Shown: positions 5,066 through 59,196, counted from the stretch's first letter. The stretch is 64,000 nucleotides of DNA from Candidatus Collierbacteria bacterium RIFOXYD2_FULL_45_13 (GCA_001774685.1 MFAS01000001.1:415557-479556); one strand, 5' to 3'. Made by a program: numbers and translations. Notes: generated from the sequence alone by a model not told the origin.

Positions 5066-5106
5066 GTCATTGCGAGGAGCAGGGCGACGTGGCAATCTCA
5101 CTCCAC
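5066..5106. repeat. Dispersed repeat copy A (GTCATTGCGAG-N-GGCAATCTCACTCCAC family)
   Basis: Left motif GTCATTGCGAG at 5066-5076 and right motif GGCAATCTCACTCCAC at 5091-5106. Intergenic between proS and the ATP-cone gene. Produces the spurious TTG-start N-terminal extension 'MRGAGRRGNLTP' in the ORF track. Confidence 0.8.
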
Positions 5107-5975
5107 TACCTGTTATTATAAATTCAGTGATAACCCTTAGTCCCATTACCATTACCAAGGCTTCCGGTGAGCAAGAGCATTTTGATGAATCTAAGCTCGT
5201 AAAGTCTCTAGCCAAAACAGGACTTTCTGTCGACGTTGCCTCACAAACCGTTGACTACCTCAAGCGCCATCTCAGAACCGGCATTACCACCAAAGATATC
5301 CACGGGCACGTTTCCTTCTATCTCAAAGAAAATGCGCCGGTCAGCAACTACTACAACTACGGCCTCAAACGAGCCATTATGGATCTGGGTCCCTCGGGTC
5401 ACCCCTTCGAAACCATTGTGTCTGATGTTCTCTCGGAATACGGATACAAATCCGAAGTTGGCGTCATCGTTCTCGGTAAATGCGTTACTCACGAAATTGA
5501 TGTTGTGGCCAAAAAAGAGACGAAGCAATTTTTTATCGAGTGTAAATTCCACAACAGTCCCGGTGTCAAAACCGATGTTCAGGTTGCTCTCTACACCTAT
5601 GCTCGATTTTTGGACATCAAGTCGGCGATGGAGCAAAGTCACGGAACCAACATTACCTACTACCCATGGTTAGTTACAAACACCAAAGTGACTTCTGAGG
5701 TATTTGACTATGCGGGCTGTGTGGGTTTGGAGCTTACTTCCTGGCTACACCCACAAGGACACGGTATGTCGGATCTGATCATGGCCGCCGGGCTTCATCC
5801 TGTCACCTTGATTTACTCCATTCCCAGATTCAAAATCAACCAGCTTCTGGAGAGGGGAATCGTTACTTGCGCCAGACTTAAAAAGGCGATTGAAGAGAAC
5901 CAAGTCTCCGATATTCTTACTCACGAGGAAATAAATATGACTTTTCAGCATATCAAAGTAATATGTAAAACCTAA
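5070..5975 (+). CDS. ATP-cone domain + Mrr-like PD-(D/E)xK restriction-endonuclease domain protein
   Basis: 'ITKASGEQEHFDESKLVKSL' is an ATP-cone N-terminus. 'HEIDVVAKKETKQFFIECK' is a D...ExK nuclease core. True start probably GTG near 5134 (MITLSPITITK). The first ~20 codons of the ORF are the repeat element. Confidence 0.6.
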   Translation: MRGAGRRGNLTPLPVIINSVITLSPITITKASGEQEHFDESKLVKSLAKTGLSVDVASQTVDYLKRHLRTGITTKDIHGHVSFYLKENAPVSNYYNYGLKRAIMDLGPSGHPFETIVSDVLSEYGYKSEVGVIVLGKCVTHEIDVVAKKETKQFFIECKFHNSPGVKTDVQVALYTYARFLDIKSAMEQSHGTNITYYPWLVTNTKVTSEVFDYAGCVGLELTSWLHPQGHGMSDLIMAAGLHPVTLIYSIPRFKINQLLERGIVTCARLKKAIEENQVSDILTHEEINMTFQHIKVICKT

Positions 5976-5984
5976 TCGTAACAA

Positions 5985-6350
5985 ATGAATAATATATTTA
6001 TGCGAATCGTCATAGTTAGCCTTGCATTATTTGGAGTGTACAAAATGTTTCCTCAGATTTCGCAGCCCGTTGACTACTATGTCAAGAACCCTCAATTTCA
6101 AACTTCAGTGATCGTTCCGGCTGTGGGCTTAGCCAACAAAGTTCTCCCGGATAAGATTCAAATTCCCACCCCAAAAATTATGGGAGTCACTACCGAATAC
6201 ACTCAATCCCCAATTTCTTCGATCACGGAGGAAATAAGCAGACAGGCCGCTAGTGTCGCCGCCAGCCTAGTCGAGAAATCTTCCAAGGCAGTCTCTGAGC
6301 AGTTCTGTAACGCCCTCCTCGAAAAAATCAAATCCGAGTGCGGTAAATAG
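5985..6350 (+). CDS. Hypothetical membrane-anchored protein
   Basis: 121 aa. N-terminal TM helix 'IVIVSLALFGVY'. Confidence 0.4.
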   Translation: MNNIFMRIVIVSLALFGVYKMFPQISQPVDYYVKNPQFQTSVIVPAVGLANKVLPDKIQIPTPKIMGVTTEYTQSPISSITEEISRQAASVAASLVEKSSKAVSEQFCNALLEKIKSECGK

Positions 6351-6373
6351 ATATTCGACATATCTTAAGTTCT

Positions 6374-6697
6374 TTACCCAACGGTCACCCCGATCATGTC
6401 CAGCTTAGGTAGATATCTCTTGATCTCATTTTTAAACTTCTCGGCCAATCCTGCTGAGTAAGTCGCATTCTGGGTATTCTCCATATGTCCACAGAGTTTG
6501 TTTTCATACAGGCGCACGATCTCCATAATTTTTTCCCCCTCGGCATTAAACTCCGCTTGGTGTTTTTGGGGATCTTTTTCATATCTATCGTGTAGCTCCT
6601 GAAAACTATCAAACTCGTTTTCATATTTAGTTACCATTTCTTCAAAAATTTCTTTGAACTTTGCAGCCATGGAAACAATGTTACCAAAACTCCACAA
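6374..6697 (-). CDS. Hypothetical cytoplasmic protein
   Basis: 107 aa charged helical ORF. No recognisable motif. Confidence 0.4.
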   Translation of the reverse strand: MWSFGNIVSMAAKFKEIFEEMVTKYENEFDSFQELHDRYEKDPQKHQAEFNAEGEKIMEIVRLYENKLCGHMENTQNATYSAGLAEKFKNEIKRYLPKLDMIGVTVG

Positions 6698-6700
6698 AAA

Positions 6701-7321
6701 ATGTACACTGTAATTATGAAAAGGACAGTTATTGGATTGGTAGGCCCCATTGCCTCCGGGAAAGGCGAGGTAGCCAAATATCTTCGTGGTTTAGGTTTCA
6801 CCATCCTTAGTCTCTCGGATCGTGTCCGTGAAGAAGTTGACGCGCGTGGGTTACCAATGTCCAGAGAAAACCTTCAGAACGTCGGCAATGATCTCCGGGA
6901 AACTTTTGGTGGTCATATTTTGGCGGAAAGAACCTTGGAACTATTTGGTAACATCGAAGGCAACATTGTTATTGATTCCATTAGGAATCCCTCAGAGATT
7001 GAGTTTCTGAAGCAGACGCTCGACCTTACCGTTATCGGCATCGATGCTTCGCCGGAGCTCAGACTCGAGCGGTACTTGTACCGAGCAGCTCGGCGAGGAG
7101 AGGATCGGGTTTCCGAGTCAGATTTTATTCATTCCAACAGTCGGGACCTGGGCATTGGCGAAAGTGTTTTCGGTCAGCAAGTTGGTCGTTGTCTGGAAAT
7201 GGCTGATGTGGTCATCCAAAACGAAGACACCAAAAAACATTTACTGGAGGCGGTTGATTATTATCTGATTTCCGAGTTGAGTTTCAGCCCCGAAGGCGCT
7301 CGCCGAGCAAAAGAAAAATAA
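6701..7321 (+). CDS. P-loop nucleotide/nucleoside kinase-like protein
   Basis: Walker A 'GLVGPIASGKGE'. 'VIDSIRNPSEIEFLK' resembles an NMP-kinase/AAA_18-type lid. Confidence 0.5.
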   Translation: MYTVIMKRTVIGLVGPIASGKGEVAKYLRGLGFTILSLSDRVREEVDARGLPMSRENLQNVGNDLRETFGGHILAERTLELFGNIEGNIVIDSIRNPSEIEFLKQTLDLTVIGIDASPELRLERYLYRAARRGEDRVSESDFIHSNSRDLGIGESVFGQQVGRCLEMADVVIQNEDTKKHLLEAVDYYLISELSFSPEGARRAKEK

Positions 7322-7324
7322 AAA

Positions 7325-7341
7325 CCCCGCCAAAGGCGGGG
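7325..7341. terminator. Bidirectional intrinsic terminator hairpin
   Basis: CCCCGCC-AAA-GGCGGGG, flanked by an A-run on + and a T-run on the minus reading (TTTTTATTTTT). Confidence 0.7.
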
Positions 7342-7348
7342 CAAAGAA

Positions 7349-7647
7349 CTACAAATCGGTGCTCAGGCTACCATGAAGAGTTATGTGAATATCCTTAGTC
7401 GGAACTTTACCTTCAAGGGCGAGAAAGACCGCAAGCTTGATGGCGGACATGACGACAACCGCTTTAGTTGGTTTCAGATTGAAATCATGAAGGACAACGC
7501 TTACTCCTTTGGCGGTTTTTGCTGAGGAGGTCGAAACGGTGGTTTCAATCTTCGTTACTTTGATAATGGCCTTCTGAACTACAATCTCTACCAATTCCAC
7601 GGTCATCGCGGAGAAATCAGGAACATACAATGTCACATTTTTCATAG
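7349..7647 (-). CDS. Hypothetical protein
   Basis: Start taken at MKNVTLYVPDF with a strong SD (GAGGAG, 7 nt upstream) rather than the longer ORF start at 7714. Confidence 0.5.
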
Positions 7648-7716
7648 CTACTCCTCGTCTACACAGTTTTTTCAGGAACACCCGTATTCTACCAATCCCA
7701 TAGTACAAAAGCAAGC

Positions 7717-8034
7717 CTACTCCTCGGGTACGGCAGCGTATTTAGGCACGAACCTGTATCTCCAAGTAGCCTCTATATCTTCCTGATCGGAATATTCAAA
7801 GTCGAGATTCTCCCGCTCCATGACAGCGAAAAACTCCTCCCAGGAAATATCTTTGGTGGTGGCTCTTCCCGAGCTCAGCATTCTTTCATCTTTGTTTCCT
7901 GGCCAGTCGATCCTTAGTCCCACTTGATCTCTCACGATCTCGGAGTCGTTAATCATCGCCGGCTTGCCCTCATGCAGTACGACCCAGTTTCTAATTTCTT
8001 CGTTAGTTTGAGCTTTTCTATAGACTACTTCCAT
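7717..8034 (-). CDS. Hypothetical protein
   Basis: 105 aa acidic ORF. No motif. Confidence 0.4.
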   Translation of the reverse strand: MEVVYRKAQTNEEIRNWVVLHEGKPAMINDSEIVRDQVGLRIDWPGNKDERMLSSGRATTKDISWEEFFAVMERENLDFEYSDQEDIEATWRYRFVPKYAAVPEE

Positions 8035-8090
8035 AAAATAATATTAGCATTAATTCCTACTAAACCCCGAGTGTTGTCCAACCTTTTTTA

Positions 8091-8110
8091 TTTGAGTTTT
8101 TGATTTTTTG
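8091..8110. repeat. 20-nt U-rich motif TTTGAGTTTTTGATTTTTTG (copy 1)
   Basis: Identical 20-mer recurs at 40965-40984. Followed by further GAGTTTTT units. Confidence 0.6.
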
Positions 8111-8114
8111 CGTT

Positions 8115-8864
8115 TTAGAGTTTTTGAGTTTTTTCTTCCTGTCTATTTTTTTCATACAACACCAGAGCCGTGGCCACACTAACATTCAAAGATGCCACAG
8201 ATTTTTGCATAGGGATGTTGATAAAGAAGTCACACTCTTTTTGCAAAGGTTCGGATATTCCTTCGGACTCTCCTCCCATCAGAAAGGCTACCGGACCGGT
8301 CAGTTTTTGTTCATACATCGTCTTGCCCATTTCCACCTCTACTCCTACTACCGGTACGGCATATTCGTGAAGCATCTTTATTGCCTGAAACAAGCTCATC
8401 GGGATCAGGGGTACGTAGGCGGCTCCGCCCATGGAAACTTTGGCCACCACTGGTGTAATTTCATGCACTCCATTTGGAGACGCCACTACGGCGTCGACGC
8501 CGGCAGCCCACGCCGTTCTCAGTATCGCTCCCATATTCTGCTCATAGTCGATTCGATTTAGCAGCAAGATGAAACAATTCCTTTTGTTATCCAATATCTG
8601 TTTCAGGGAAATCACCTCCGGTACATCCATAAGGGCAATGACTCCTTGAGGGTTTCTCGACTCCGCCATTTTGTTCAGATCATCAGTCGGAATAGTTCGG
8701 ATTTGCACTCCTTTTTCTCTGGCCATTTTCTCAATCTCTTTGATCTTCGGGTCCCCGACTGATCCGAGCGCCAGCATCACCGTACCAATTTTTTGTCCGG
8801 AGGACAACCCATCTCTTACCATATTTCTGCCTTCCAAAGTTACGTAGTCTATCTGTTTTGCCAT
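8115..8864 (-). CDS. SpoU-family 23S rRNA (guanosine-2'-O)-methyltransferase, RlmB-like
   Basis: N-terminal substrate-binding domain plus SpoU motifs 'LNRIDYEQNMGAILRTAWAAGVDAVV' and 'LNVSVATALVLYE'. Confidence 0.8.
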   Translation of the reverse strand: MAKQIDYVTLEGRNMVRDGLSSGQKIGTVMLALGSVGDPKIKEIEKMAREKGVQIRTIPTDDLNKMAESRNPQGVIALMDVPEVISLKQILDNKRNCFILLLNRIDYEQNMGAILRTAWAAGVDAVVASPNGVHEITPVVAKVSMGGAAYVPLIPMSLFQAIKMLHEYAVPVVGVEVEMGKTMYEQKLTGPVAFLMGGESEGISEPLQKECDFFINIPMQKSVASLNVSVATALVLYEKNRQEEKTQKL

Positions 8865-8881
8865 AGTTTATTATTATACTT

Positions 8882-10207
8882 GTGCACCGGAAAAAGCGTA
8901 CTCGTCTCACTCATGAAGAGAAGTTTATTATTAGTGGTAGTTCACATATTGGTTTTGGAGGCCAGACCAAGCTACTTCACAAAGTTTTCTCATCGTTACC
9001 GGCTCTAAAGAGCCGTAATTGCCGGCGCTATTTTGCCGGTCAGCTTATCTCCATCATCGGTAGCTGGATGCAAATTGCGGCTCTCGGCTGGCTCACACTT
9101 CAGTTGACCAACTCCGCTTTTATGGTCGGGTTGGTGGCGGCACTGTTTCCCTTACCGGCTCTTTTCTTCTCTCTCTTTGGAGGTATCATCGTTGACCGAT
9201 TTTCCAAAAAGCAGTTGTTACTTATCACCAACTCTTTATCTATGCTCTTAGCCTTTGCCTTGGGTATACTTACTGTTCTGGGAGTTGTTAATATCACCGA
9301 GGTCATTGTTATTTCCTTGTTGGGTGGCATTGTCAGTTCTGTATCTATGCCGGCACACTTTGCCTATCTTAGTGAGCTGGTCGACAAAGAAAATATTTCT
9401 TCAGCCATGTCCATAAACGCCGGCATCTCCAGTCTTGGTCGGGTCCTAGGTCCGGGAATTGCCGGGCTCTACATCGCATTTGCGGGTACTGGAGGAGCCT
9501 TCATTCTCAATGGTCTAAGCTATGTTGCTGTCATCGTTGCTCTTCTACTTATAGACACTCCTTACAAAGTTACCAACCAACATTTGGCACCACTGACCGC
9601 TATCAAAGAGGGGATTGCCTATTCTTTCATGAATCCCATGATACGTTCCATCTTTTTATATGTCAGTGCTATGTCTATTTTTGGCTGGTCCTACACCACC
9701 ATTATTCCCGTCCTAGCGAGAGATGTTTTTCATTCAAACTCTACCGGTATGGGCTATCTTTTCTCATCCATCGGGATTGGGGCTATAGTGGCCACATTAC
9801 TGGTCTCCGCCCTTTCCGGTAAGTTTAGTAAGCTCTCCATCGTCATCTTTGGTAATTCATTATTTTCTCTTAGTCTCTTTCTTTTTTCCTTCACCTCCAA
9901 TCTAAACTTGGGGATATTTTATCTTTTTCTGGCAGGTGGTGGCTTGGTCGCCATTAACGTCATTTTGGGGACCATGGTCCAGTTGATGGCCGATGAAAAA
10001 TACCGTGGTCGTGTTTCCAGTATCTACTATCTTCTTTATGCGGGGCTCTTGTTTCTTGGCAATCTGGAAATTGGTTATCTCACCGACGTTTTTGGTAGCG
10101 GCACAGCTCTTCGCATCAATACTCTGGCTGTCCTTACAATTAGCCTTGCCATCTATTTCACCAAAGACAACCTTCGGTCGGCACAACAGATCTATCTCAA
10201 GTCATAA
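8882..10207 (+). CDS. MFS transporter
   Basis: 12-TM profile with an MFS_1-type N-terminus 'RRYFAGQLISIIGSWMQIAALGW'. Confidence 0.8.
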   Translation: MHRKKRTRLTHEEKFIISGSSHIGFGGQTKLLHKVFSSLPALKSRNCRRYFAGQLISIIGSWMQIAALGWLTLQLTNSAFMVGLVAALFPLPALFFSLFGGIIVDRFSKKQLLLITNSLSMLLAFALGILTVLGVVNITEVIVISLLGGIVSSVSMPAHFAYLSELVDKENISSAMSINAGISSLGRVLGPGIAGLYIAFAGTGGAFILNGLSYVAVIVALLLIDTPYKVTNQHLAPLTAIKEGIAYSFMNPMIRSIFLYVSAMSIFGWSYTTIIPVLARDVFHSNSTGMGYLFSSIGIGAIVATLLVSALSGKFSKLSIVIFGNSLFSLSLFLFSFTSNLNLGIFYLFLAGGGLVAINVILGTMVQLMADEKYRGRVSSIYYLLYAGLLFLGNLEIGYLTDVFGSGTALRINTLAVLTISLAIYFTKDNLRSAQQIYLKS

Positions 10208-10266
10208 AAGATGCTCGGTTTACCCCCAAAAAACCCGCCTTTGCGACGGGTTTCGATAATGTCTTA

Positions 10267-10647
10267 TCAACATTCTGGAAAATATTTCTCAGCCAGCTTC
10301 TTGGCCTGTGTGAAGTAATTATCTCCATCAGTCTTATATCCCTCCGCGGCTTGGTTACGATAAAAACGCAATGGAGGCTCAGCCGGCAGATGATGACTAA
10401 TAAAGACCTCTTCGTGTTTCCAGGTGGCGTAATTGATGATAGCGAGCGCTAGCAGTGTGGCAATTGCTTCAGCTGCATTTTCATCAGTGATGAGGAATAA
10501 TAGCTGACCGGCTTTTCCAGGTTCAAACGAGGCTAGTTGCATCACCACTTCCAGCATATCCGATAAACCAAATGAGCTGGCCAGCTTTGAAACTTCCTTG
10601 ATCACATTATCACTCGGATCAAGATCCAAAATCAGATTGATTACCAT
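10267..10647 (-). CDS. Hypothetical protein
   Basis: 126 aa. No motif. Confidence 0.4.
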   Translation of the reverse strand: MVINLILDLDPSDNVIKEVSKLASSFGLSDMLEVVMQLASFEPGKAGQLLFLITDENAAEAIATLLALAIINYATWKHEEVFISHHLPAEPPLRFYRNQAAEGYKTDGDNYFTQAKKLAEKYFPEC

Positions 10648-10703
10648 TCAATCTCCTTTAATGTGCCTAAGATAAGGCATTCTATCACATTTGCATCCGA
10701 CAG

Positions 10704-10732
10704 TTGACAACCCTATAACAAGATGATATAGT
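10704..10732 (+). promoter_or_regulatory. Sigma70-type promoter (TTGACA-17-TATAGT)
   Basis: TTGACA at 10704-10709, 17-nt spacer, TATAGT at 10727-10732. Predicted TSS sits at or next to the ATG at 10738. Confidence 0.45.
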
Positions 10733-10737
10733 ACTAA

Positions 10738-10863
10738 ATGCCAATTTTGGCAAACCAAATGAAAAACACGGTCATAAATATCAGGTTAACTCTTCCACAA
10801 GATCTCGTGGAAGGTTTTACTGGCCTTAACTGTGCCTCGGTCTTTGCGTATATCAATCCGTAA
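10738..10863 (+). CDS. Candidate leaderless leader peptide (41 aa) upstream of ABC exporter
   Basis: ATG 6 nt after the -10 hexamer. ORF MPILANQMKNTVINIRLTLPQDLVEGFTGLNCASVFAYINP ends in TAA 25 nt before a terminator hairpin. Below the 60-aa ORF-track cutoff. Confidence 0.3.
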   Translation: MPILANQMKNTVINIRLTLPQDLVEGFTGLNCASVFAYINP

Positions 10864-10888
10864 TTCGAATTAAATTAGATTTACTCAA

Positions 10889-10915
10889 ACGCCGCGGCCT
10901 ACGCGGCGTTTTTGT
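10889..10915 (+). terminator. Intrinsic terminator / attenuator hairpin in 5' leader of ABC exporter
   Basis: AACGCCGCG-GCCTA-CGCGGCGTT followed by TTTTTGTG. Lies 30 nt upstream of the SD 'AAAGGAGG' of the 10945 gene. Confidence 0.5.
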
Positions 10916-10944
10916 GCGCACTTTAAAAAAACAAAGGAGGTTCT

Positions 10945-12681: not shown

Positions 12682-12692
12682 GCTCTCTACAA

Positions 12693-12722
12693 GCCTCGCA
12701 TTTGCGGGGCTTTTTATTTTTT
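12693..12722. terminator. Intrinsic terminator (bidirectional)
   Basis: GCCTCGC-ATTT-GCGGGGC followed by TTTTTATTTTTTT. Confidence 0.65.
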
Positions 12723-12971
12723 TCTCTTGGTACTTTTCTTAACCACGACCTTGGGAGAAGTTCCCACAAAGACATCCTTGTGAATCACGAGATAAATGGT
12801 TGGCAAGATTCCCATGCTGTTGACCAAAAGAAGAGCGACGAACCAAACAACCTGCTTTCTTCCGGCACTCTTATATAGAGCAATCCCTTTTAGGATTAAG
12901 TCCAACAGGACGAAAAAGTATAGCCAACCGAAGCGGCCCGAGAACATCATGTTTTGATAATAGTTGTACAT
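12714..12971 (-). CDS. Small membrane protein (DUF5652-like)
   Basis: 85 aa, two TM helices, lysine-rich C-terminus. Small-membrane-protein type. Confidence 0.45.
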   Translation of the reverse strand: MYNYYQNMMFSGRFGWLYFFVLLDLILKGIALYKSAGRKQVVWFVALLLVNSMGILPTIYLVIHKDVFVGTSPKVVVKKSTKRKK

Positions 12972-13014
12972 ATATTAATATTACACAATTTTTTGGCCGT
13001 ATACTAATTACTAG

Positions 13015-13704: not shown

Positions 13705-13768
13705 AGCGTGTTTGAATATTGTCTTTGCAAAACTCTCTATAATGGAGTCATATCAATTACTTTTCAGC

Positions 13769-14308: not shown

Positions 14309-14331
14309 TCTCTAAATTACCACAAAAAAAA

Positions 14332-14352
14332 GACCGGCATATTATGCCGGTC
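14332..14352. terminator. Bidirectional intrinsic terminator
   Basis: Perfect 9-bp stem GACCGGCAT-ATT-ATGCCGGTC with an A8 run upstream (a T8 run on the minus reading). Confidence 0.8.
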
Positions 14353-14359
14353 TAAATTG

Positions 14360-15388: not shown

Positions 15389-15463
15389 GGAACCTCCAGG
15401 AGGAATAGGTTAAGACATCCTATATTATATGAGATCACTGCCTCATATGTCAAGACGTCCCCC

Positions 15464-17250: not shown

Positions 17251-17328
17251 TCTTTTGATTATATTTCAACTAACATAGTTTTTTATAAGTGGTAGAATTG
17301 TTCCCATCTCACGAAGAAGGAGGCATCT

Positions 17329-17622: not shown

Positions 17623-17635
17623 AGACGAGCATTCA

Positions 17636-17662: not shown

Positions 17663-17679
17663 GGAATATAATATAGAGC

Positions 17680-19023: not shown

Positions 19024-19034
19024 TGACTGACGAG

Positions 19035-22981: not shown

Positions 22982-23136
22982 GGTTTCCTCCAAAATTTGA
23001 ATTTGCAACGCTACCGCTATTATAGGACATTTCAAATAGAATGTCAACCTTTTTGGCTTGGACTTGAAATCAAGGTTTGTGAGGTGAGGTGTTATAACGA
23101 AATTCGAACTTATTTTCGGGACCATTACTAATTAAT

Positions 23137-23240
23137 GGCTCACCGCACGGCAAAATTGCCTCGCGGTTCGCCAACCCCGCCAGCCGGCAGGGTTCACCGG
23201 TCGCGCGACACCGCACCTCCAACTGGGTTGTCGGTGAGCC
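23137..23240. repeat. GC-rich structured element (9-bp terminal stem GGCTCACCG/CGGTGAGCC enclosing ~85 nt)
   Basis: Internal hairpins GGCAA-AA-TTGCC and the 12-nt palindrome GGTCGCGCGACC. The central 8-bp stem is perfect only on the minus reading (U-G versus C-A). About 68% GC. Confidence 0.45.
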
Positions 23241-23267
23241 ATACAAACTCGGTATCCCGTCCTCGTC

Positions 23268-23313
23268 GTCATTGCGAGTTTCGATACTTCGAACCGAAGC
23301 AATCTCACTCCAC
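23268..23313. repeat. Dispersed repeat copy B
   Basis: GTCATTGCGAG at 23268-23278, internal TTCGA-TAC-TTCGAA, right motif GCAATCTCACTCCAC at 23299-23313. Confidence 0.8.
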
Positions 23314-23436
23314 TGACACTCGTTTGGGATGATTGCTCTCCGAGCAAGCGACAGCTATCGCTGTCGCATCTCTATGTTCGCCAAAGATCACATAGTGACG
23401 TGGCGAAGCTATCTCAATATATGACTCGTCAAAATC

Positions 23437-23470
23437 GTCATTGCGAGGAGTGCAATGACGAAGCAATCTA
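23437..23470. repeat. Dispersed repeat copy C (degenerate right end)
   Basis: GTCATTGCGAGGAGTGCAATGACGAAGCAATCTA, then the palindrome CAATCTATATAGATTG. A right-end-like fragment GACGTGGCGAAGCTATCTC sits at 23397-23415. Confidence 0.6.
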
Positions 23471-23494
23471 TATAGATTGCGTTTCCTCGCCATA

Positions 23495-23532
23495 AAATAC
23501 CCACTGATTAGGAGAAAATTTTATCAGTGGGT
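23495..23532. repeat. Perfect 12-bp inverted repeat ATACCCACTGAT / ATCAGTGGGTAT with 14-nt spacer
   Basis: Read directly from sequence. Followed by the further palindromes CTGGC-G-GCCAG and GCCTGC-TTC-GCAGGC at 23551-23585. Confidence 0.7.
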
Positions 23533-23637
23533 ATTAAAAGCATTGAGACATCATTGGCCTGGCGGCCAGTGCCTGCTTCGCAGGCATGCAAGCTCATTTG
23601 TATATAAAATACCATTATTTGGTATAAAATAACCTTA

Positions 23638-40956: not shown

Positions 40957-40964
40957 TCCTCTCA

Positions 40965-40984
40965 TTTGAGTTTTTGATTTTTTG
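40965..40984. repeat. 20-nt U-rich motif TTTGAGTTTTTGATTTTTTG (copy 2)
   Basis: Exact match to 8091-8110. Sits between convergent gene ends. Confidence 0.6.
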
Positions 40985-40991
40985 AGTTTTT

Positions 40992-41318
40992 TTATATTTC
41001 TTGAGTTTCCGGCTCCTCAGTCTTCTGAGGAAATAACTTTTCAGTTCCGGCTTTAATTTTTAGATACTCTTCACAACGCAGTCGGGCGAAAACTCCTTCT
41101 CTCTGTTCATTGGGACACTCGGTAATGAGAGCCATTCCAAAAAAAGTCATGCTGATAATTATCATCGAAAAAATCGAAACTCCCACGATTCTAAATTTGT
41201 AATAGACATCATCCAGTACGATTTCTCCCCAGCCTTCTACCAAATGGTAAAACCATTCCGAAAAAGCCACCAAAAATATAATTGCAACTATGACCCCAAC
41301 CGCAATCGGCATCTGCAT
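40992..41318 (-). CDS. Small membrane protein
   Basis: 108 aa. Two TM helices. Confidence 0.45.
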   Translation of the reverse strand: MQMPIAVGVIVAIIFLVAFSEWFYHLVEGWGEIVLDDVYYKFRIVGVSIFSMIIISMTFFGMALITECPNEQREGVFARLRCEEYLKIKAGTEKLFPQKTEEPETQEI

Positions 41319-47657: not shown

Positions 47658-47709
47658 GTGTCGGGGGAATCTATATAATTAAGTTTCAATATATTTGATA
47701 AGATAAGTC

Positions 47710-48255
47710 ATGGAAATAAAGACAATCGATCTTGATAGAGCTGACCCCGTTACTCCTAGAGTTGATGAAGTTCCGGTCTATCAACCGAAAATTACTAACA
47801 AAAGCATGATCTCTAAATCAAACATCCTCACCGTAGTTACTTTTATTATTGTGGCGGTTGCCGGTTTTTATACCGGAGCCACTCTAAAAACTTCTCTTGG
47901 TGGTAAAACGGCCGGAAGTACCTCGGGAGATTTGAAGAACATCCAAGCCGAAGTACCGGTCACAGGGGTCAAAGTCGGAGACATCTATGGTTCCCCGGAT
48001 GAAAAGGCTTTCAACACCACCGCTACCGGCGTGCTCGACAAAGGCGGTCTCAACGGAGAAGGTACTCACAAGCTGGTACGCCCCGGCGGTCCTTCTCAAA
48101 CTGTTTACATGACCAGTTCCGTAATTGATTTGGATACTCTCATTGGGCACCAAATCACTGTCTGGGGAGAAACATTCAAAGGCCAAAAGGCTGGTTGGCT
48201 AATGGATGTCGGTCGTGTTAAGGTTGAAAACCTGAACATGCCCTTACCAAAATAA
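47710..48255 (+). CDS. Membrane-anchored hypothetical protein
   Basis: N-terminal TM 'ILTVVTFIIVAVAGFY', Gly-rich domain. Confidence 0.45.
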   Translation: MEIKTIDLDRADPVTPRVDEVPVYQPKITNKSMISKSNILTVVTFIIVAVAGFYTGATLKTSLGGKTAGSTSGDLKNIQAEVPVTGVKVGDIYGSPDEKAFNTTATGVLDKGGLNGEGTHKLVRPGGPSQTVYMTSSVIDLDTLIGHQITVWGETFKGQKAGWLMDVGRVKVENLNMPLPK

Positions 48256-48262
48256 CGATCCC

Positions 48263-48306
48263 GTCATTGCGAGTTTCGTACTCGAACCGTGGCAATCTCA
48301 CTCCAC
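48263..48306. repeat. Dispersed repeat copy D
   Basis: GTCATTGCGAG at 48263-48273 and GGCAATCTCACTCCAC at 48291-48306. Intergenic, upstream of ftsE. Confidence 0.8.
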
Positions 48307-48344
48307 ACAGTCAACGATAATTAATAATTAGACGGCATACAACC

Positions 48345-49133
48345 TTGATTGATTTTTCCCATATTACCAAGTCGTACCCCAATGGCGATGTGGTTCTGAA
48401 TGATGTAAATTTTTCCGTCTCACCTGGAGAATTTGTCGTGATCACCGGTAAGTCCGGAGCCGGGAAAACTACCTTGGGGCGTTTACTTATTCGCGATCTT
48501 CTTCCCATCAAAGGGAAAATAGTTATCGATGGTGAAGATCTTAATCAGATTAAACCGAAAAATATACCCCTGATCAGAAGAAAGGTGGGGTTCGTCTTTC
48601 AAGATTACAAAATTATTCCGGATAAAACTATCGGTGAAAACATCACTATCGCCTTGGAGATTGGTGGATACAACCGCAAAAAAATCCAGGAAAAGATTAC
48701 GGAATTACTCAAAATTGTTGGGATACCGGGTAAAGAGCATTTATTTCCTGGTCAACTATCCGGTGGAGAAGTTCAGCGAGCCGCTATTGCCCGAGCCATC
48801 GCTTGCGAGCCGGCCATTTTATTCGCCGATGAACCTACAGGGAACCTTGACAAAGATACCTCTGTTGAAATCTTTAACCTCCTCAAAAAAATCAACGATG
48901 GTGGTACCACCGTTATCTTGGCCACTCACGATGTTACCTTGATCGGTTTGAACCCGGATCGCAATATCCATCTGGAAAAGGGTAAGATAGTTTCAGATGT
49001 CGATGGCAAACCATCCAAATCGGAGCCATCTTCCGATTCCTCGTCATTGCGAGAAGGTACTCCGACGTGGCCCGCTGGTCCCCGAAGGGGGAAATCTCAC
49101 TCCACCAAGCGTAAAATAAATATCAATAAATGA
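48345..49133 (+). CDS. ftsE: Cell-division ABC ATPase FtsE (with ~35-aa C-terminal extension created by an in-frame repeat)
   Basis: 'GKSGAGKTT', 'LSGGEVQRAAIARAI' and 'LFADEPTGNLD'. The C-terminal 'SSLREGTPTWPAGPRRGKSHST' is the translation of repeat copy E. Stop overlaps the ftsX start (ATGA). Confidence 0.85.
   Translation: MIDFSHITKSYPNGDVVLNDVNFSVSPGEFVVITGKSGAGKTTLGRLLIRDLLPIKGKIVIDGEDLNQIKPKNIPLIRRKVGFVFQDYKIIPDKTIGENITIALEIGGYNRKKIQEKITELLKIVGIPGKEHLFPGQLSGGEVQRAAIARAIACEPAILFADEPTGNLDKDTSVEIFNLLKKINDGGTTVILATHDVTLIGLNPDRNIHLEKGKIVSDVDGKPSKSEPSSDSSSLREGTPTWPAGPRRGKSHSTKRKININK
49043..49105. repeat. Dispersed repeat copy E (long variant, inside ftsE 3' end)
   Basis: GTCATTGCGAG at 49043-49053, extra GC hairpin CCCC-GAAG-GGGG, right motif AAATCTCACTCCAC at 49092-49105. 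Confidence 0.75.
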
Positions 49134-51249: not shown

Positions 51250-51252
51250 TCT

Positions 51253-51543
51253 AAAAAAAAGAAGCCTCCCGTTACACGGGAGGCTCTCACCAATAAGAGT
51301 CGACTTCAGAAGTTCACCCCCCAGTGGAGGGCACCTTTTTGAACCAGTCGATAATACGGTTCAAACGCGGTACTTCTTTGTCAACTTCTCCCACCGGAAG
51401 GTGGAATCGGGCTTAAAACCCGGGCACGGAGTCGCACCGTGCACTAAAGGCAAGCTCCGGGAACAAGGCTAGGCACTGGAGGTCGGGAAACCCGAACTCT
51501 ATATACACCCAAACGCCCCATGCCCAGACCGCCTTTTAACAAC
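51253..51543 (-). ncRNA. Candidate ~290-nt structured ncRNA (unassigned family)
   Basis: Minus strand. Consensus promoter TTGACA-16-TATAAT (plus coordinates 51576-51549). GC-rich body with hairpins CCACC-GGAA-GGTGG, GCACGG-AGTCGCA-CCGTGC and TCGGG-AAA-CCCGA. Ends in the terminator GCCTCCCG-UGUAA-CGGGAGGC plus UUCUUUUUUUU. No credible ORF. Confidence 0.4.
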
Positions 51544-51548
51544 TTTGT

Positions 51549-51576
51549 ATTATAAGCCCAAGTTTCTCATTGTCAA
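51549..51576 (-). promoter_or_regulatory. Consensus sigma70 promoter overlapping helicase stop codon
   Basis: Minus reading: TTGACA (plus 51576-51571), 16-nt spacer, TATAAT (plus 51554-51549). Confidence 0.5.
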
Positions 51577-54461: not shown

Positions 54462-54540
54462 ACTCCTTTTGTTGTCAATGTTCGGTCATCCTTGAAGGAT
54501 GCTCTGATTCTACGCCCAAGCCATCAAAAAACAAATAGCC

Positions 54541-54578
54541 ACAAAAACAAAAAACCGAGGGTGAATATTCACTCTCGG
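54541..54578 (-). terminator. Intrinsic terminator ending the 3-gene operon
   Basis: Minus reading: CCGAGAGTGAA-TAT-TCACCCTCGG followed by TTTTTGTTTTTG. Confidence 0.65.
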
Positions 54579-54590
54579 TAGTCACACGGG

Positions 54591-55739
54591 TTAGCTCCAG
54601 ACCCTTCCTTCCTCATATTCTTCCCCAAAATAATAATGAGGAATTACCTCCAACTCCGGCGCCGATTTTTCTCTTTTCAACAGTTCTTCAGTTAGCGCTC
54701 GATAAAAACCAACCACAGCCGGCTGGAATCCAGTCTGGAAGAAGGCGATTCGATAGATCCCCTCACTCCGTAATTTTTCGAAAATTTCTTTCGCTCTTAC
54801 ATAAGCCGCCTCATCCGATTCTGCGGCTGTTTTCCCGATGGAGATTTCCTGGTTTCGGAAGAAATACACCTTCACCACCTCGTCCATTTCATGATGCCTT
54901 CCGCTCATCATTCCCACGTTTAAGATGGGATGTTTGGACAAAGCCTTCAGTTTTTCACTTCTAAACTTAAGACAGCGGATCGGTAATGGTTTGCCTTTCG
55001 ATCCGTCAGCGTAAATTACCGGTAAATACATCGGTCTTCCACCTTGATATACAAATTCGCGCAGTATCTCGGTAATGACATTGTGTGCCAGATCACTAAA
55101 ATTGACACCCGTCTGAATTCCTTTCTCCATATCAGCGATCACGGTGTTGATCTGATTCCTGAGGGCCATGAACGAGTTAACGTCTTTGGCGGAGGTAATC
55201 TTGTCGCTCACAGGAATTGATAAAAATTTAGATATCAGTCCGTCTTCGGGATTTACCTCTGCATCTTCGGTAATCAGCTGCTCTTGCAGTTCCAGTATGT
55301 GTAACTTATTTTTTTCGGCATCACGATAGAAGCGTATTTTTTCTTGTATTTCTTTCCGGTCGGAAACGCCTGCCCGCTTTACCAGGTTTTCGAACAGACT
55401 GATCTGCTCGGTGATTTTGGACCATGGACAGAAGTTGGCCGATACTCTAGCGGACCTGAATTCAACAGGGAAACGTGCCTGTATTTGCAGCAGAAGTTCA
55501 AAATACTCGATTCCCAACTCCACTGACCGAACCGATTTATTCATACCGATAAAACTACCCAAGTATTCCATTCGGTCACACAGGATATGATAACGCCGCT
55601 GTTCATCATCGGGGTTTACCCCCTTCCTCAAACGCTCTTCGATCTTGAGGGCTTTAGACATCAGTACCCTCAAGTCAAGCCTCTCGACGAGGCATGCATC
55701 ATCAGGAACGGCAATCAGCTTTATGGAAGTTTTCATCAT
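54591..55739 (-). CDS. Hypothetical protein (operon gene 3, 382 aa)
   Basis: No recognisable motif. Start overlaps the stop of gene 2 (4 nt). Confidence 0.5.
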   Translation of the reverse strand: MMKTSIKLIAVPDDACLVERLDLRVLMSKALKIEERLRKGVNPDDEQRRYHILCDRMEYLGSFIGMNKSVRSVELGIEYFELLLQIQARFPVEFRSARVSANFCPWSKITEQISLFENLVKRAGVSDRKEIQEKIRFYRDAEKNKLHILELQEQLITEDAEVNPEDGLISKFLSIPVSDKITSAKDVNSFMALRNQINTVIADMEKGIQTGVNFSDLAHNVITEILREFVYQGGRPMYLPVIYADGSKGKPLPIRCLKFRSEKLKALSKHPILNVGMMSGRHHEMDEVVKVYFFRNQEISIGKTAAESDEAAYVRAKEIFEKLRSEGIYRIAFFQTGFQPAVVGFYRALTEELLKREKSAPELEVIPHYYFGEEYEEGRVWS

Positions 55740-56890
55740 TGCCGCGTTCTCCTTCCTGTTTCCAAACGACGGATTGCCTCTTTGTCCAAACTCGTCATAC
55801 TATCCGGCGCCAACATCAAATACACACCCTCCTTTTTTAATTGGCTGATAATCTGAGTTTGAAAGGCGAGGGATACATCTTCAAAGTCACGAGGAACTAG
55901 ATAGAAGACCATGGTAGTAGCGTCTTTTCGGTACTTGGCAATCAGTTTTTTCAAACTTCCCAAATCGTTCAGAAAATATTTTTGAATTTCTCCATCCGAC
56001 CTGGCTCGGACCAGTACCACCATGCGCTGGCCGGCAGAGAGCATTTTATTCTCATCGATCCACGGAATCATTAGTTCAGTGTCGGCATGATATATTTTGG
56101 CAAAATAAACCGAGTCAAAATCAATAGCCAGAGGGGATTCTTCATCTTCCGACTCCACGATTTGACCACCTTCAAACAGCTCGGTTCTGAGCAGTTTTCT
56201 ATCCAGCACTCCTCCCAAGATCGCCGATCCGGCTACTCGTAGGTCGTTGAGATACAAGTGTCTGTCTTCAGGATCCGAGGCACTTTGTAGCAACCTCTCC
56301 GGGTGACGGCTGCCGAGAATAATAGATTCTGCTTCCGACAAACTCCAGACTCCTCCCATTATCAAGAAACATACTCTCTCTGGAGAAATTAGTTTATCTA
56401 CTGCCATCTTCATAATCTTTTCTTTGGCTGTCTGAGAAAATCCGGCCAGACCAAGATACAATTGTCGTGCTTCAAAAGGCGTAATATGGCCTTCAAAAAC
56501 ATGTTTGAGCTTGACACCCATCTCGATAGCTAGGTCGCAAATGTAGGCAGGAACCCGGCCACCCTCGACATTCGAAGTAAAGACGATTTCCATCGACCCG
56601 CCACATTTGTAGCTTTCGGAAAGTAAAAAACCCAGAGCTACTTTTGCTCCGCTGTTTTCTACATACTGCGGGGGGTTGGCAATCAGACAGACGTCGACCT
56701 CTAGAAAGTTTCCTTTGCGGTTATGTTTAACCACCAAGAGCGAAAAAACAATATCTCTTGAACACCAGCGGTAAGGCCGATAGTCAAAGTTTTTTGGCAG
56801 CTTATTTCTTTTCCGGAACGAATTCTCATAATCGGTTACATGTTTCTTAAATGCTTCAAGACCATGCAGAACCTCTTCGGTTGTCGGCAT
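55736..56890 (-). CDS. Hypothetical protein (operon gene 2, 384 aa)
   Basis: No recognisable motif. Confidence 0.5.
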   Translation of the reverse strand: MPTTEEVLHGLEAFKKHVTDYENSFRKRNKLPKNFDYRPYRWCSRDIVFSLLVVKHNRKGNFLEVDVCLIANPPQYVENSGAKVALGFLLSESYKCGGSMEIVFTSNVEGGRVPAYICDLAIEMGVKLKHVFEGHITPFEARQLYLGLAGFSQTAKEKIMKMAVDKLISPERVCFLIMGGVWSLSEAESIILGSRHPERLLQSASDPEDRHLYLNDLRVAGSAILGGVLDRKLLRTELFEGGQIVESEDEESPLAIDFDSVYFAKIYHADTELMIPWIDENKMLSAGQRMVVLVRARSDGEIQKYFLNDLGSLKKLIAKYRKDATTMVFYLVPRDFEDVSLAFQTQIISQLKKEGVYLMLAPDSMTSLDKEAIRRLETGRRTRQ

Positions 56891-56899
56891 ATTCTCTCC

Positions 56900-57376
56900 T
56901 CATCTTAGTTGTGTTACATCAACGAGCTGAGATTCCGGGTCGATATGAATTACCAAGAACTCAACATTAGCCGCTCCAACCCGAAGAATTTCTTCTCCGA
57001 TCATTGCATTGGCAGCCGAATAGAAACTAGAAGTTGGGTCACACATCAGGGTGGCTTTGTACTCTACCCACTCGACAGACCCTTCCCGTCCGTGAACTGT
57101 ATCTTTCAAAGATGCCACTCCGGAAGACTTGGTGGCCTTTGCCTCCACTATTACGAGCTTACCGGCTCCATCTCGAAACACGTTGTCATAGCCATGAATT
57201 TTTTTGTCAAATCGCTCTGTTCCCAAATTTAGTTCTTTGACAGCGTGCTCCGTAGCCATTTGTTCTCCCAGATCACCCTGCCAGATGTTTCCATATCTCT
57301 GGACAGTATTTAAGACAACCAAAGCAATATAACCCGCATCTTCTTCGGTCGGAATTTTTCCGCAGCATTGGGACAT
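56900..57376 (-). CDS. Mrr-like PD-(D/E)xK nuclease-domain protein (operon gene 1, 158 aa)
   Basis: 'HGYDNVFRDGAGKLVIVEAK' closely parallels 'HEIDVVAKKETKQFFIECK' of the ATP-cone/Mrr protein at 5070. Same D...(E)xK core spacing. Confidence 0.45.
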   Translation of the reverse strand: MSQCCGKIPTEEDAGYIALVVLNTVQRYGNIWQGDLGEQMATEHAVKELNLGTERFDKKIHGYDNVFRDGAGKLVIVEAKATKSSGVASLKDTVHGREGSVEWVEYKATLMCDPTSSFYSAANAMIGEEILRVGAANVEFLVIHIDPESQLVDVTQLR

Positions 57377-57470
57377 ATAGGCTCCTTTTTCTAACCCTAG
57401 TTTTCAAAGTTCATCTACGCTTATGGATGAATTCTACCACCACGTAGGTTCAAAATGATAAAATATTTTT

Positions 57471-58064
57471 ATGGATCAGCAAATACACGTTAAGGCCCAA
57501 ACTCTCTACGGGTTAGCAAGACAAGCTGGCCTCATCACCTCAGAACCCTTTTCCACTGTTTTTTCCCAAGAAATACTCCGGGGAATTTCGGAGATGTTAG
57601 ACCGTGAGAGGACCTTTCTAATTCACTCAAAACCAAAGACCGAAGATCCAGAAAAGCTTTGGAAGGAGGGAATTGATCTCAAGATTTCCGAGTTAGTTGC
57701 TCAGGAGTTGCTAGATTTTCTCCAAAACATTCACAAGGCCTTTAGTGTTGCTTACGACCAGCCTGTCGAGGATGTTGTTTTCAATTTCCGCACTGTCTCC
57801 GAAGATCTCAGCATTTCGGACTTAGGTGAAAAGCAAGAAAACGGCAAGTGGTTTCAAGGTATGAAAATTGATGAAGAAACTTTTTGGTACCTGGCCGATG
57901 AGCCGGCTCTGGTCCAGGACACCCTCCATGATATAAATCAAAAGCTCTCTCCTCTTTCCAAGGGCATCCTGCGTGCAGACTTCCGAGATCAGGATCAATA
58001 TGTCGTCATTGATCTAAAACATCTCCCTGAATTTGAAAAATTTGGTTTTTCCTCGGTATCGTGA
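57471..58064 (+). CDS. Hypothetical protein (divergent from the 3-gene operon)
   Basis: 197 aa. No motif. Confidence 0.45.
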   Translation: MDQQIHVKAQTLYGLARQAGLITSEPFSTVFSQEILRGISEMLDRERTFLIHSKPKTEDPEKLWKEGIDLKISELVAQELLDFLQNIHKAFSVAYDQPVEDVVFNFRTVSEDLSISDLGEKQENGKWFQGMKIDEETFWYLADEPALVQDTLHDINQKLSPLSKGILRADFRDQDQYVVIDLKHLPEFEKFGFSSVS

Positions 58065-58136
58065 TAATATATTCTTGAGATCAGCCCGTATCGCGTAACT
58101 TCTGTTACGTGACTAGGTTGATCTCAATTTCTTTCA

Positions 58137-58165
58137 AAACTGCCTATTGACACTGGTTTCATTGT
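58137..58165 (+). promoter_or_regulatory. Sigma70-type promoter TTGACA-17-TACAAT
   Basis: TTGACA at 58137-58142 and TACAAT at 58160-58165, upstream of the 58297 gene. Confidence 0.45.
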
Positions 58166-58296
58166 AACTTACAATCATAAATAGTCGAGAACGCAAGTTT
58201 TCGATCAGAGATACTAGCAATAGTAAATCGGAAAAAGGCTCCGCAAGGAGTTCTTTTTCTTTATATACCCCTCCATTCTGTTATAGTTGGTATAAA

Positions 58297-59196
58297 GTGA
58301 AACAAATCCTGCCCGTGTTGTTTCTTTTTCTGTTGTTCTTCCTTATATCTCCTCCTCACACACTTGCAGTTTCCTTCACTATTGATAATCCCGTCAGAGA
58401 AGGGGATTACTATATCGTCGATGCCAGCGTTTCCGGGATCTCTTCCTCCTCAGCTTACGTCTTTGGTATGTTTACCAACAAGGACAATCCTGATTATTTC
58501 GGTTTCACTTGGGGTCAGAAAGAAGATTGGGTCGAGTATCAATCCACCACCAAAGAGTTTATTTCGGCCAATTTACCCATTCTTTTGAGGGACACACTTC
58601 AAAAAATTTGGATCAAACCAAACTATCAAAACCCAGGTTACAAAGGACCGGGTGATTACTATCTGAAACTCAAACGATACACCGGCTCGTCCGACGGGTC
58701 AGCTGGTGATTCAAATGTACTAACCATCCATCTTATGGAGACCACCCCAACTCCAACGCCCACCGAAGAAAGTACCACCACTCTTACTCCAACTCAGACT
58801 TCCACTCCTACTACAAGCTCAGTCCAAGAGCCGACTGTTACTTTGAATCCTACCAAGACTCCTACACCAACGGCCATTAAAACCCCTACCCCAACTCCTC
58901 TTAAAACATCCACTCCTACCAAAACACTCACACCCACCCCGCCCGTCATTGCGAACCCCACTTTAGTGGGGCGTGGCAATCTCACTCCACCCGATTCCTC
59001 TCGCTCCTCCATTCTCGGCATGTCAACCGCGTCTGCGTCTCCGGATGTCATCATTGCGAGGAGCGGAAGTGACGCGGCAATCTCAAATTCAAGAAGTGCT
59101 TTCAACGCTTCAAATCTCAAATACACCTTTATTTTTGGGGTCATCATCACCTCACTTTCCGGAGGTGTCCTGTATTTTAGACACCGGAACGTCTAA
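58297..59196 (+). CDS. Secreted PT-rich surface protein with C-terminal TM anchor (contains two in-frame repeat copies)
   Basis: Signal peptide 'ILPVLFLFLLFFLISPPHTLA', TPTPT linker, C-terminal TM 'FIFGVIITSLSGGVLYF'. Repeat copies F and G are translated as 'PPVIANPTLVGRGNLTPP' and 'DVIIARSGSDAAIS'. Confidence 0.55.
   Translation: MKQILPVLFLFLLFFLISPPHTLAVSFTIDNPVREGDYYIVDASVSGISSSSAYVFGMFTNKDNPDYFGFTWGQKEDWVEYQSTTKEFISANLPILLRDTLQKIWIKPNYQNPGYKGPGDYYLKLKRYTGSSDGSAGDSNVLTIHLMETTPTPTPTEESTTTLTPTQTSTPTTSSVQEPTVTLNPTKTPTPTAIKTPTPTPLKTSTPTKTLTPTPPVIANPTLVGRGNLTPPDSSRSSILGMSTASASPDVIIARSGSDAAISNSRSAFNASNLKYTFIFGVIITSLSGGVLYFRHRNV
58945..58990. repeat. Dispersed repeat copy F (inside CDS)
   Basis: GTCATTGCGA at 58945-58954, internal CCCCAC-TTTA-GTGGGG, right motif GGCAATCTCACTCCAC at 58975-58990. 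Confidence 0.8.
59050..59085. repeat. Dispersed repeat copy G (degenerate, inside CDS)
   Basis: ATCATTGCGAGGAGCGGAAGTGACGCGGCAATCTCA. Confidence 0.6.

Follow-up and report, generated by a model that had tools for sequence, protein, structure and literature searches.

Repeat copies in the 64-kb window

The 64,000-nt stretch analysed here (hereafter the window) belongs to Candidatus Collierbacteria bacterium RIFOXYD2_FULL_45_13 (GCA_001774685.1, MFAS01000001.1:415557-479556) and carries seven dispersed copies of a short repeat, in which two conserved ends enclose a variable hairpin and which resembles the CGTC-tagged repetitive extragenic palindromic (REP)-like elements. Positions below are those of the whole 64-kb stretch, and the letters A, B and D to H given to the copies are those of this analysis. 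The loci compared bear L numbers; L001-L120 come from IMG/VR, and L121-L208 are among the loci of related genomes.

A search of the window for the left-end word GTCATTGCGAG (at most one mismatch) returned seven matches, at 5066, 23268, 23437, 48263, 49043, 58945 and 59050, all on the + strand, against 0.75 expected by chance; none of 100 shuffled sequences reached seven. The right end, GGCAATCTCACTCCAC (at most three mismatches), was matched five times against 0.46 expected. As the initial annotation had suggested, we also condensed 81 non-identical copies of related genomes into a covariance model (R1), which was run unfiltered on both strands. R1 recovered exactly seven significant matches in the window, all on the + strand, with scores from 68 to 19 bits and E values from 2e-18 to 3e-3, and its best match beyond these had an E value of 0.33. 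The word search and the model thus converge on the seven positions proposed initially, and the cores and extra hairpins described for them are seen in the sequence, so that a dispersed family with conserved ends and a variable hairpin core is genuinely present.

Copy A (5065-5106, +; R1 59.0 bits, E = 1.4e-15) is full and reads CGTC-ATTGC-GA-GGAGCAGGGCGAC-GTG-GCAAT-CTCACTCCAC. It lies in the ~90 nt that separate an ATP-cone/Mrr_cat gene from a divergent class II aminoacyl-tRNA synthetase gene (3802-5043, −), where it supplies the TTG of an over-long open reading frame (ORF), the false start suspected from the outset. Copy B (23267-23313, +; 62.8 bits, E = 9e-17) is also full, with the inner hairpin TTCGA-TACT-TCGAA. 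Copy D (23436-23478, +; 38.6 bits, E = 2.4e-9) is a variant with the tail CTATATAGATT, and its left end can also pair with its own inverted copy (CGTCATTGCG/TGCAATGACG). The fragment noted at 23397 is a right-half remnant of a further copy (GACGTGGCGAAGCTATCTCAATATATG; 23397-23423, +), recognised by reading the sequence and not significant with R1, and a decayed relic (…GGGGGAATCTATATAATTAAG; ~47658-47683, +) emerged from the alignment with an intact site in L155.

Copy E (48262-48306, +; 68.3 bits, E = 1.9e-18) is full and starts 7 nt past the stop codon of the upstream gene (47710-48255), 45 nt before ftsE. Copy F (49042-49105, +; 18.7 bits, E = 0.003) occupies the 3' end of ftsE and contains an extra 21-nt hairpin, CCGCTGGTCCCCGAAGGGGGA (49072-49092, +), between GTGGC and AATCTC. 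Read-through of this copy supplies the final ~30 residues of FtsE, a 262-aa protein whose stop codon overlaps the start of ftsX; the extension of FtsE by a repeat copy was therefore correctly recognised. Copy G (58944-58990, +; 56.4 bits, E = 8e-15) is full, with the inner hairpin CCCCAC-TTTA-GTGGGG, and copy H (59050-59085, +; 27.4 bits, E = 6.5e-6) is degenerate, with ATC in place of GTC in the tag and without the ACTCCAC tail. Translation of the gene at 58297-59196 placed both in frame, as peptides VIANPTLVGRGNLTPP (copy G) and IIARSGSDAAIS (copy H). The product is secreted and membrane-anchored, and the two copies fall in the linker between its Thr/Pro-rich region and its C-terminal membrane anchor.

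Anatomy of the element

The architecture of the element was deduced from ~140 copies of related genomes and ~280 copies from other contigs, which were aligned or compared (among the matches listed). The order of the units is (C/T)GTC, ATTGC, GA, a variable hairpin bounded by one nucleotide on each side (N and N'), G-N-R, GCAAT, CTC and, where present, ACTCCAC, and the whole element measures 34-64 nt. In the alignment of 81 copies, ATTGC and GCAAT form a 5-bp outer stem that is paired in 99.5% of the cells, and its first two pairs, A-U (7-39) and U-A (8-38), are kept in 81 and 80 of the 81 copies, respectively. The ends are thus in part mutual inverted repeats, contrary to the initial view. The fourth position of the outer stem covaries in the wider family, where ATTGC/GCAAT, ATTCC/GGAAT and ATTTC/GAAAT are all found. 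Inside the stem lies a conserved, asymmetric and purine-rich internal loop of 2 x 3 nt, GA facing G-N-R, the 3' side of which reads GTG, GAA or GCG.

The inner helix comprises 4-7 bp, and its loops and inserts range from 3 to >30 nt. Both partners vary in all seven of its pairs; cells in which both are changed number 167, compared with 63 ± 6 after shuffling (none of 500 shuffles reached 167), and the covariation score was 0.359 in the true register compared with 0.035-0.110 in slid registers. Where the inner hairpin meets the 3' arm, at a single fixed junction, a second small hairpin may be inserted, and nested hairpins like that of copy F (CCTGCCTGCCGGCAGGCAGG) are present in L181 and L162. 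Tiny extra hairpins were seen also inside a 500-bp module of L196 and L137 (described below), and resemble a second, smaller mobile hairpin.

The tag is CGTC in 70 of the 81 aligned copies and TGTC in nine; CGTC is present in six of the seven copies of the window. In copies from the Candidate Phyla Radiation (CPR), the 3' tail consists of CTC followed by ACTCCAC, the letters of which (A, C, T, C, C, A, C) are each conserved at 77-91%. GACG, the proposed partner of CGTC in a pseudoknot-like fold, occurs in 32% of the copies, and this pairing is not a feature of the family. The initial annotation was right that the element is no miniature inverted-repeat transposable element, as it spans 34-64 nt rather than 70-300 bp and has five complementary end nucleotides rather than terminal inverted repeats of 15-30 bp. 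The GA/GNR loop was considered, by inspection alone, as a kink-turn or loop E, an interpretation that we discarded because the strands of the loop misfit the consensus. An intrinsic terminator was likewise discarded, since the hairpin is followed by CTCACTCCAC and not by a T-run. Only three tRNAs reached the gathering score when the window was compared with Rfam, and searches at E values up to 10 around the copies and in copy-rich loci yielded nothing relevant.

Strand polarity

The GTCATTGCGAG (top) strand of the element was the locally C-rich strand in 126 of 137 copies in the CPR loci and the window (p ~ 1e-25). The ratio was 119:17 when the skew was taken from DNA >2 kb from any copy, and 80:2 when each locus was given one vote. 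The skew is strand-wide, being evident in genes of both strands (−0.094 and −0.186 on the reference strand), and in the window it is negative throughout regardless of gene orientation. Once the strand is fixed, sense and antisense copies number 78 and 48, which equals the coding share of that strand (61%), so that the direction of transcription adds nothing. The elements are therefore oriented with a chromosome-wide strand asymmetry and not with transcription, and an orientation set at the RNA level was rejected on this ground.

The same bias was found in further sets of copies. Core copies in IMG/VR gave 188:73 overall and 135:34 at an absolute skew of at least 0.05, with a sense:antisense ratio of 149:131 (all among the matches listed). 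Classical CGTC REPs, simple hairpins discussed below, gave 40:12 in the CPR loci and 46:4 in the IMG/VR loci, the latter among the matches listed.

Upstream of the copies, G is scarce over 12 nt and a pyrimidine stands at position −1, namely C in 83% of the copies from CPR and T in 77% of those from IMG/VR (the latter among the matches listed). We considered whether the polarity could be an artefact of insertion-site composition. Nevertheless, the upstream preference accounts for a bias of ~2.5-fold at most against the 13-fold observed, and the bias persists in DNA >2 kb away.

Replication-linked orientation is known for the single-stranded DNA (ssDNA) transposons IS200/IS605 (PMC3971601; PMC6006769). 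Our literature search retrieved descriptions of such orientation for insertion sequence families, notably IS200/IS605, and none for REPs, and leading and lagging strands are not mentioned in the principal account of CGTC-tagged repeats (Di Nocera, De Gregorio and Rocco 2013, BMC Genomics 14:522; PMC3733652). The replication-type polarity is a notable property that, as far as we found, is unreported.

Gene context

The element is mostly found just past the 3' ends of genes or in tolerant tails and linkers of proteins. Crude ORF calls placed 38 copies between unidirectional genes in the sense orientation and 18 in the antisense orientation, with nine between convergent and 16 between divergent genes. 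By the same calls, many sense copies begin 1-10 nt past the upstream stop codon, and antisense copies touch stop codons by their tails, the complement of which contains TGA. The in-frame tolerance noticed in the window extends to the family, as 56 of 80 full copies are free of stop codons in all three sense frames; the antisense strand usually has one open frame alone. This openness of the top strand, whichever frame is read, accounts for the tolerance of in-frame copies. The C-terminal extension of FtsE was also found in the orthologues of two sister genomes, a comparison that had been proposed for this gene.

Two putative surface proteins of the window contain Thr/Pro-rich, 18-nt periodic repeats (ACTCC(T/C)AC…; 62236-62562 and 58840-58940), which share the word ACTCCAC with the tail of the element, probably by composition. 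T-rich tracts with an 8-nt period (TTTTGAGTTTTTGATTTTTTG) occur at two intergenic sites (8090-8140 and 40964-40998).

Orthologous sites and turnover

Elements at orthologous sites are 99% identical in their ends and 90% in the inner part, compared with 84% in the flanks, and compensatory changes were seen. Copy A is identical at the orthologous site of L146, the flanks of which are 76-91% identical. Copy B has orthologous or paralogous counterparts in L179, L123, L170 and L173, and where the window retains the 23397 remnant, sister genomes possess a full element at the matching place (filled versus partial in L170, L173 and L196). Likewise, the relic at 47658-47683 corresponds to an intact element, GTCATTGCGAGCGTAGCGTGGCAATCTATATAAATAAG, at the orthologous site of L155. 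The site of copy E is also occupied in L150 and L155; in L155 the inner stem has changed from TTCG/CGAA to CTCG/CGAG, and the outer stem includes a G:T pair. The site of copy F holds an uninterrupted copy in L150, lacking the extra hairpin, and a variant with the outer stem ATCTC/GAGAT in L155. Thus, inner hairpins, or the outer stem, may differ between genomes at the same orthologous site, and at some sites an element present in one genome is missing or decayed in a close relative.

Several observations concern the surroundings of copies B and D. Copy B lies at the 3' end of a ~500-bp non-coding module (23084-23590) that is multi-copy in Collierbacteria, with two or three copies within a few kb in each of L173, L196 and L137 and further copies in L123, L170 and L179. 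Its core combines a long-range closing helix (GGCTCACCG…CGGTGAGC) with conserved internal segments, has no Rfam match, and is followed by small ORFs without known function; the module may be a structured RNA or a cassette boundary. A pair of OrfA/OrfB-like ORFs of an IS3-family transposase (L173, 3-1119) adjoins the repeated modules. A subfamily of the element carries the tail CTATATAAAT in place of CTCACTCCAC (window 23436-23478 and 47658-47683; L155, L121, L124 and L208; the L155 member is on the − strand and starts at 5966 in reverse-complement coordinates). Its shortest form (28 nt), TTGCGA-N16/18-TATA(T/A)A, matches a sigma-70 promoter in its geometry, and this promoter-like form lies ~40 nt upstream of a start codon in L155 and in the window.

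Distribution

The tailed form of the element (…AATCTCACTCCAC) was detected in 88 stretches of a species-representative genome collection, almost all from Collierbacteria, Woesebacteria, Daviesbacteria or unnamed Patescibacteria. Several of the metagenome-assembled genomes (MAGs) with the tailed form are labelled 'uncultured Pseudomonadales', which we read as mislabelled CPR genomes, and a few matches come from Deltaproteobacteria, Nitrospira, Gemmatimonadales and Anaerolineae MAGs. In IMG/VR, the tailed form was present in three stretches alone; the core, GTCATTGCGAG-N10-40-GCAATCTC, was found there in at least 120. The core also occurs in Alphaproteobacteria, and near-identical copies were retrieved from replicons of Methylosinus, Methylocystis, Novosphingobium and Halomonas as well as from records of gut phages. 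Many of the IMG/VR stretches belong to one phage clade, in which 32 loci share a capsid-like protein (e.g., L112, L113, L020 and L070) and numerous core elements are placed between structural genes, with a maximum of 11 per 12 kb; truncated left halves frequently stand in tandem with them (GTCATTGCGAGG…CCCTTTTCC-GTCATTGCGAG…). The density in the window amounts to ~1 copy per 9 kb in a streamlined genome of ~1 Mb.

How the elements may act and spread

The family is real, structured and widespread, conserved at orthologous sites and gained or lost at some of them. The orientation, linked to the skew and independent of genes, argues for a DNA-level, replication-linked mechanism involving single-strand hairpins. 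We therefore favour, with a probability of roughly 0.55, the reading that the repeats are small non-autonomous REP-like DNA hairpin elements, which act and spread as folded ssDNA at replication forks by means of an enzyme supplied in trans. Under this reading, the element would fold when a single DNA strand is exposed at the fork, and the putative enzyme would recognise the tag, the mismatched loop and the tail, much as HUH Y1 transposases handle the ends of IS200/IS605 and GTAG-type REPs. Copies inside genes would be by-products that survive through the open frames of the top strand.

A number of observations weigh against this reading. Single copies fold weakly as free ssDNA (−3 to −9 kcal/mol, with z mostly above −1.5), so that the structure rests on covariation and not on stability; the DNA folds of copies D and G gave −11.2 kcal/mol (z = −5.25) and −8.7 kcal/mol (z = −2.8), respectively, and top-strand hairpins are only slightly more stable than bottom-strand ones. 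No consistent target-site duplication or signature distinguished filled from empty sites. Copies of the same genome mostly have unique interiors (different inner sequences in 15 of 16, 24 of 26 and 7 of 7 cases), and thus bear no sign of a recent burst or transposition. No protein family recurs beside the copies when the ORFs of 88 CPR loci are clustered, and no IS200/IS608-like Y1 TnpA was detected by phmmer, with approximate query sequences, in the six-frame ORFs of 1.7 Mb of loci. On pSA1 of Novosphingobium, core copies that end in CCAG are arranged head to head as a dimer, so that the polarity is not universal; the proteobacterial replicon checked for polarity offered one such dimer in 40 kb. 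Finally, ends that are more conserved than their flanks are expected of a host function no less than of a mobile element.

The assignment of the top strand to one side of the fork raises a further difficulty, as the available guides conflict. Leading strands are usually G-rich. On the G-rich strand are dnaA, in four of four loci, and most tRNA genes (17:9), in agreement with that rule, and if the rule holds here the top strand would be the leading-strand template. Gene orientation says otherwise, for 61-64% of coding bases lie on the C-rich strand, together with the genes for EF-Tu, S12, DnaK, three other translational GTPases and one of two GroEL proteins. If it is the better guide, the top strand would be the lagging-strand template, as in IS608. 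Two side observations belong here: the skew does not switch within 3-6 kb of dnaA, and in the whole window and L121-L208 either the usual GC-skew rule or the usual preference of genes for the leading strand seems not to hold. A search for DnaA homologues listed no protein on the window's own 1.09-Mb contig.

Among the alternatives, a domesticated host DNA signal with a polar role in replication or chromosome handling and an ancient spread, for instance a priming or primosome-type site on one template strand or a fork or helicase signal, would account for ends that are 99% identical beside flanks at 84%, for the near absence of identical paralogues and recent bursts within a genome, and for the persistence of copies at ~1 per 9 kb in a genome streamlined to ~1 Mb. 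It would likewise explain a replication-type polarity of 93% and the four dnaA loci with copies on both sides of or beside dnaA. Nevertheless, we hold it to be rather unlikely. The same core is shared by many phyla and by phage contigs, reaching 11 copies per 12 kb, which suits a parasite better than a host signal; sites have been gained, lost and decayed between close relatives, and Novosphingobium carries head-to-head dimers. In addition, a role of the tail octamer CTCACTCC akin to FtsK-orienting polar sequences was rejected, as free-standing octamers numbered 39 against a composition-matched mean of 19 and maximum of 49, and are thus not unusual.

The start of many copies 1-10 nt past an upstream stop codon is what one would expect of an RNA-level cis element in mRNA 3' ends or intercistronic regions, serving as a stabiliser against exonucleases or as a processing or protein-binding site. 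The covariation includes G:U-type pairs, and Di Nocera et al. (PMC3733652) argue for transcription of many REPs and for a role of these in RNA form. Nevertheless, the 38% of copies that are antisense to the nearest gene equal the background coding proportion, the IMG/VR copies are nearly balanced as given above, and antisense copies are also close to gene 3' ends. There is no T-run after the hairpin and no Rfam match, and stem mismatches, which might betray the folding strand, differ little (13 G:T versus 9 A:C) and favour neither strand clearly. We consider a function in RNA to be improbable on balance.

Even less credit is due to folded recombination sites comparable to integron attC, which would serve a tyrosine or serine recombinase as substrates for the exchange or insertion of DNA. 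The conserved paired ends, the unpaired central loop, the terminal structure of very variable length and the strand specificity of the copies are all reminiscent of such sites, as are the swapping of the inner hairpin or outer stem at one orthologous site and the extra hairpins at one fixed junction. The R-box consensus (GTTRRRY/RYYYAAC) is, however, absent from the aligned copies, which are dispersed singletons and not cassette arrays, and no recombinase gene recurs near them. It is least credible that the copies are decaying fossils without present activity, their polarity stemming from a composition-linked bias of insertion or decay; the G-poor 12 nt upstream and C/T at −1, together with the suggestion of Di Nocera et al. 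(PMC3733652) that CGTC families may be nearing extinction, speak for it, but the upstream preference is estimated to explain ~2.5-fold at most and not 13-fold, the bias holds >2 kb away, the ends vary less than adjacent coding DNA, and compensatory changes maintain the pairing of the stems.

Returning to the replication-linked hairpins that we favour, it is attractive to speculate, though we regard this as unlikely, that these elements, and CGTC-type repeats at large, are substrates of a widely conserved ssDNA enzyme or replisome-associated activity on one template strand of the fork. Such an activity would explain the conservation across phyla, the missing transposase and the 93% replication-type polarity, and streamlined CPR genomes may retain the copies for a polar function in replication.

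The origin and spread of CGTC-type REPs have been open since their first description, since these repeats, unlike GTAG REPs, have no REP-associated tyrosine transposase (RAYT) or dedicated transposase. A strong orientation bias that is tied to the skew and independent of transcription offers a mechanistic clue, pointing to ssDNA at the fork. There is also a practical consequence for annotation. In CPR genomes the elements create spurious ORFs, false starts and C-terminal extensions, and yield recurrent 'hypothetical protein' peptides; R1 can be used to mask them.

Relation to known repeats

Literature searches with the DNA string and with the encoded peptides yielded nothing relevant, and those on palindromic repeats in CPR retrieved papers on TIGR-Tas alone, which concern tandem arrays and not dispersed copies.

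Several better-known systems share part of the architecture. Like GTAG REPs, REPINs and the ends of IS200/IS605, the element is a short imperfect hairpin with a conserved tetranucleotide at its 5' foot; IS200/IS605 ends and GTAG REPs are recognised as ssDNA, and IS200/IS605 copies are oriented with replication. Unlike the GTAG REP/REPIN-RAYT system, the element has (C/T)GTC in place of GTAG, no RAYT or Y1 gene nearby and no REPIN dimers, and its stems are highly diverse within a genome, whereas GTAG REP copies are nearly identical. Rickettsia palindromic elements (RPEs) are similar in being small palindromic repeats within coding sequences, where they encode short peptides in non-critical regions. 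Their sequences are nevertheless unrelated save for the CGTC-type members, RPE-1 is ~150 bp long, and only three of the seven copies in the window are translated, each within a C-terminal tail or a linker. Integron attC sites share the conserved paired ends, the unpaired central spacer and the variable terminal structure, act as a folded single strand in a strand-specific manner, and lie just after ORFs; unlike them, the copies of the window are dispersed and lack the R/L box consensus, an integrase and cassette arrays.

The closest relatives are the CGTC-tagged REP-like families described by Di Nocera et al. (PMC3733652), CGTC-1 to -4, which include dRS3 of Neisseria and RPE-4 and RPE-6 of Rickettsia. 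According to that description, these repeats have a CGTC tag (sometimes TGTC or CCTC), stems of 8-9 bp starting with A-T, loops of 4-5 nt and CCA tails, occur mostly as head-to-head dimers in five phyla, and have no associated transposase. They lie mainly between unidirectional or convergent ORFs near the upstream 3' end, with some in-frame intragenic copies. Such classical forms (GTCATTCCCGCGAAGGCGGGAATCCAT and GTCATTCCGGGCTTGACCCGGAATCCAG) were found in 52 copies in sister Collierbacteria loci and in none within the window.

The element agrees with CGTC REPs in its 5' CGTC/TGTC tag, a stem starting with A-T and T-A, a short pyrimidine tail that is left unpaired, a length of 30-60 nt, its placement downstream of ORFs with occasional in-frame copies, its presence in several phyla and the lack of an associated transposase gene. 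It differs in having a 5-bp outer stem, a GA/GNR loop and a variable inner hairpin of 10-40 nt instead of a simple stem, and a CTC(ACTCCAC) tail instead of CCA, the Novosphingobium core, which ends in CCAG, being nearer in this respect. In addition, the copies are mostly singletons in one orientation and not dimers, the majority following the skew in 80 of 82 loci, and CPR/Patescibacteria are not in the published list of phyla. The ATTGCGAG type is absent from the table of intragenic copies in the 2013 paper; the types in its Figure 2 were not compared. The initial annotation had not recognised the family and had named an already catalogued element as what would refute it; by that standard the claim is weakened, since the element fits the CGTC-tagged REP-like superfamily and its core is very abundant elsewhere, though we did not find the exact variant catalogued. 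We conclude that the repeat is neither categorically new nor a textbook member, but a bipartite-stem, CPR-adapted structural variant of the CGTC-type REP-like repeats.

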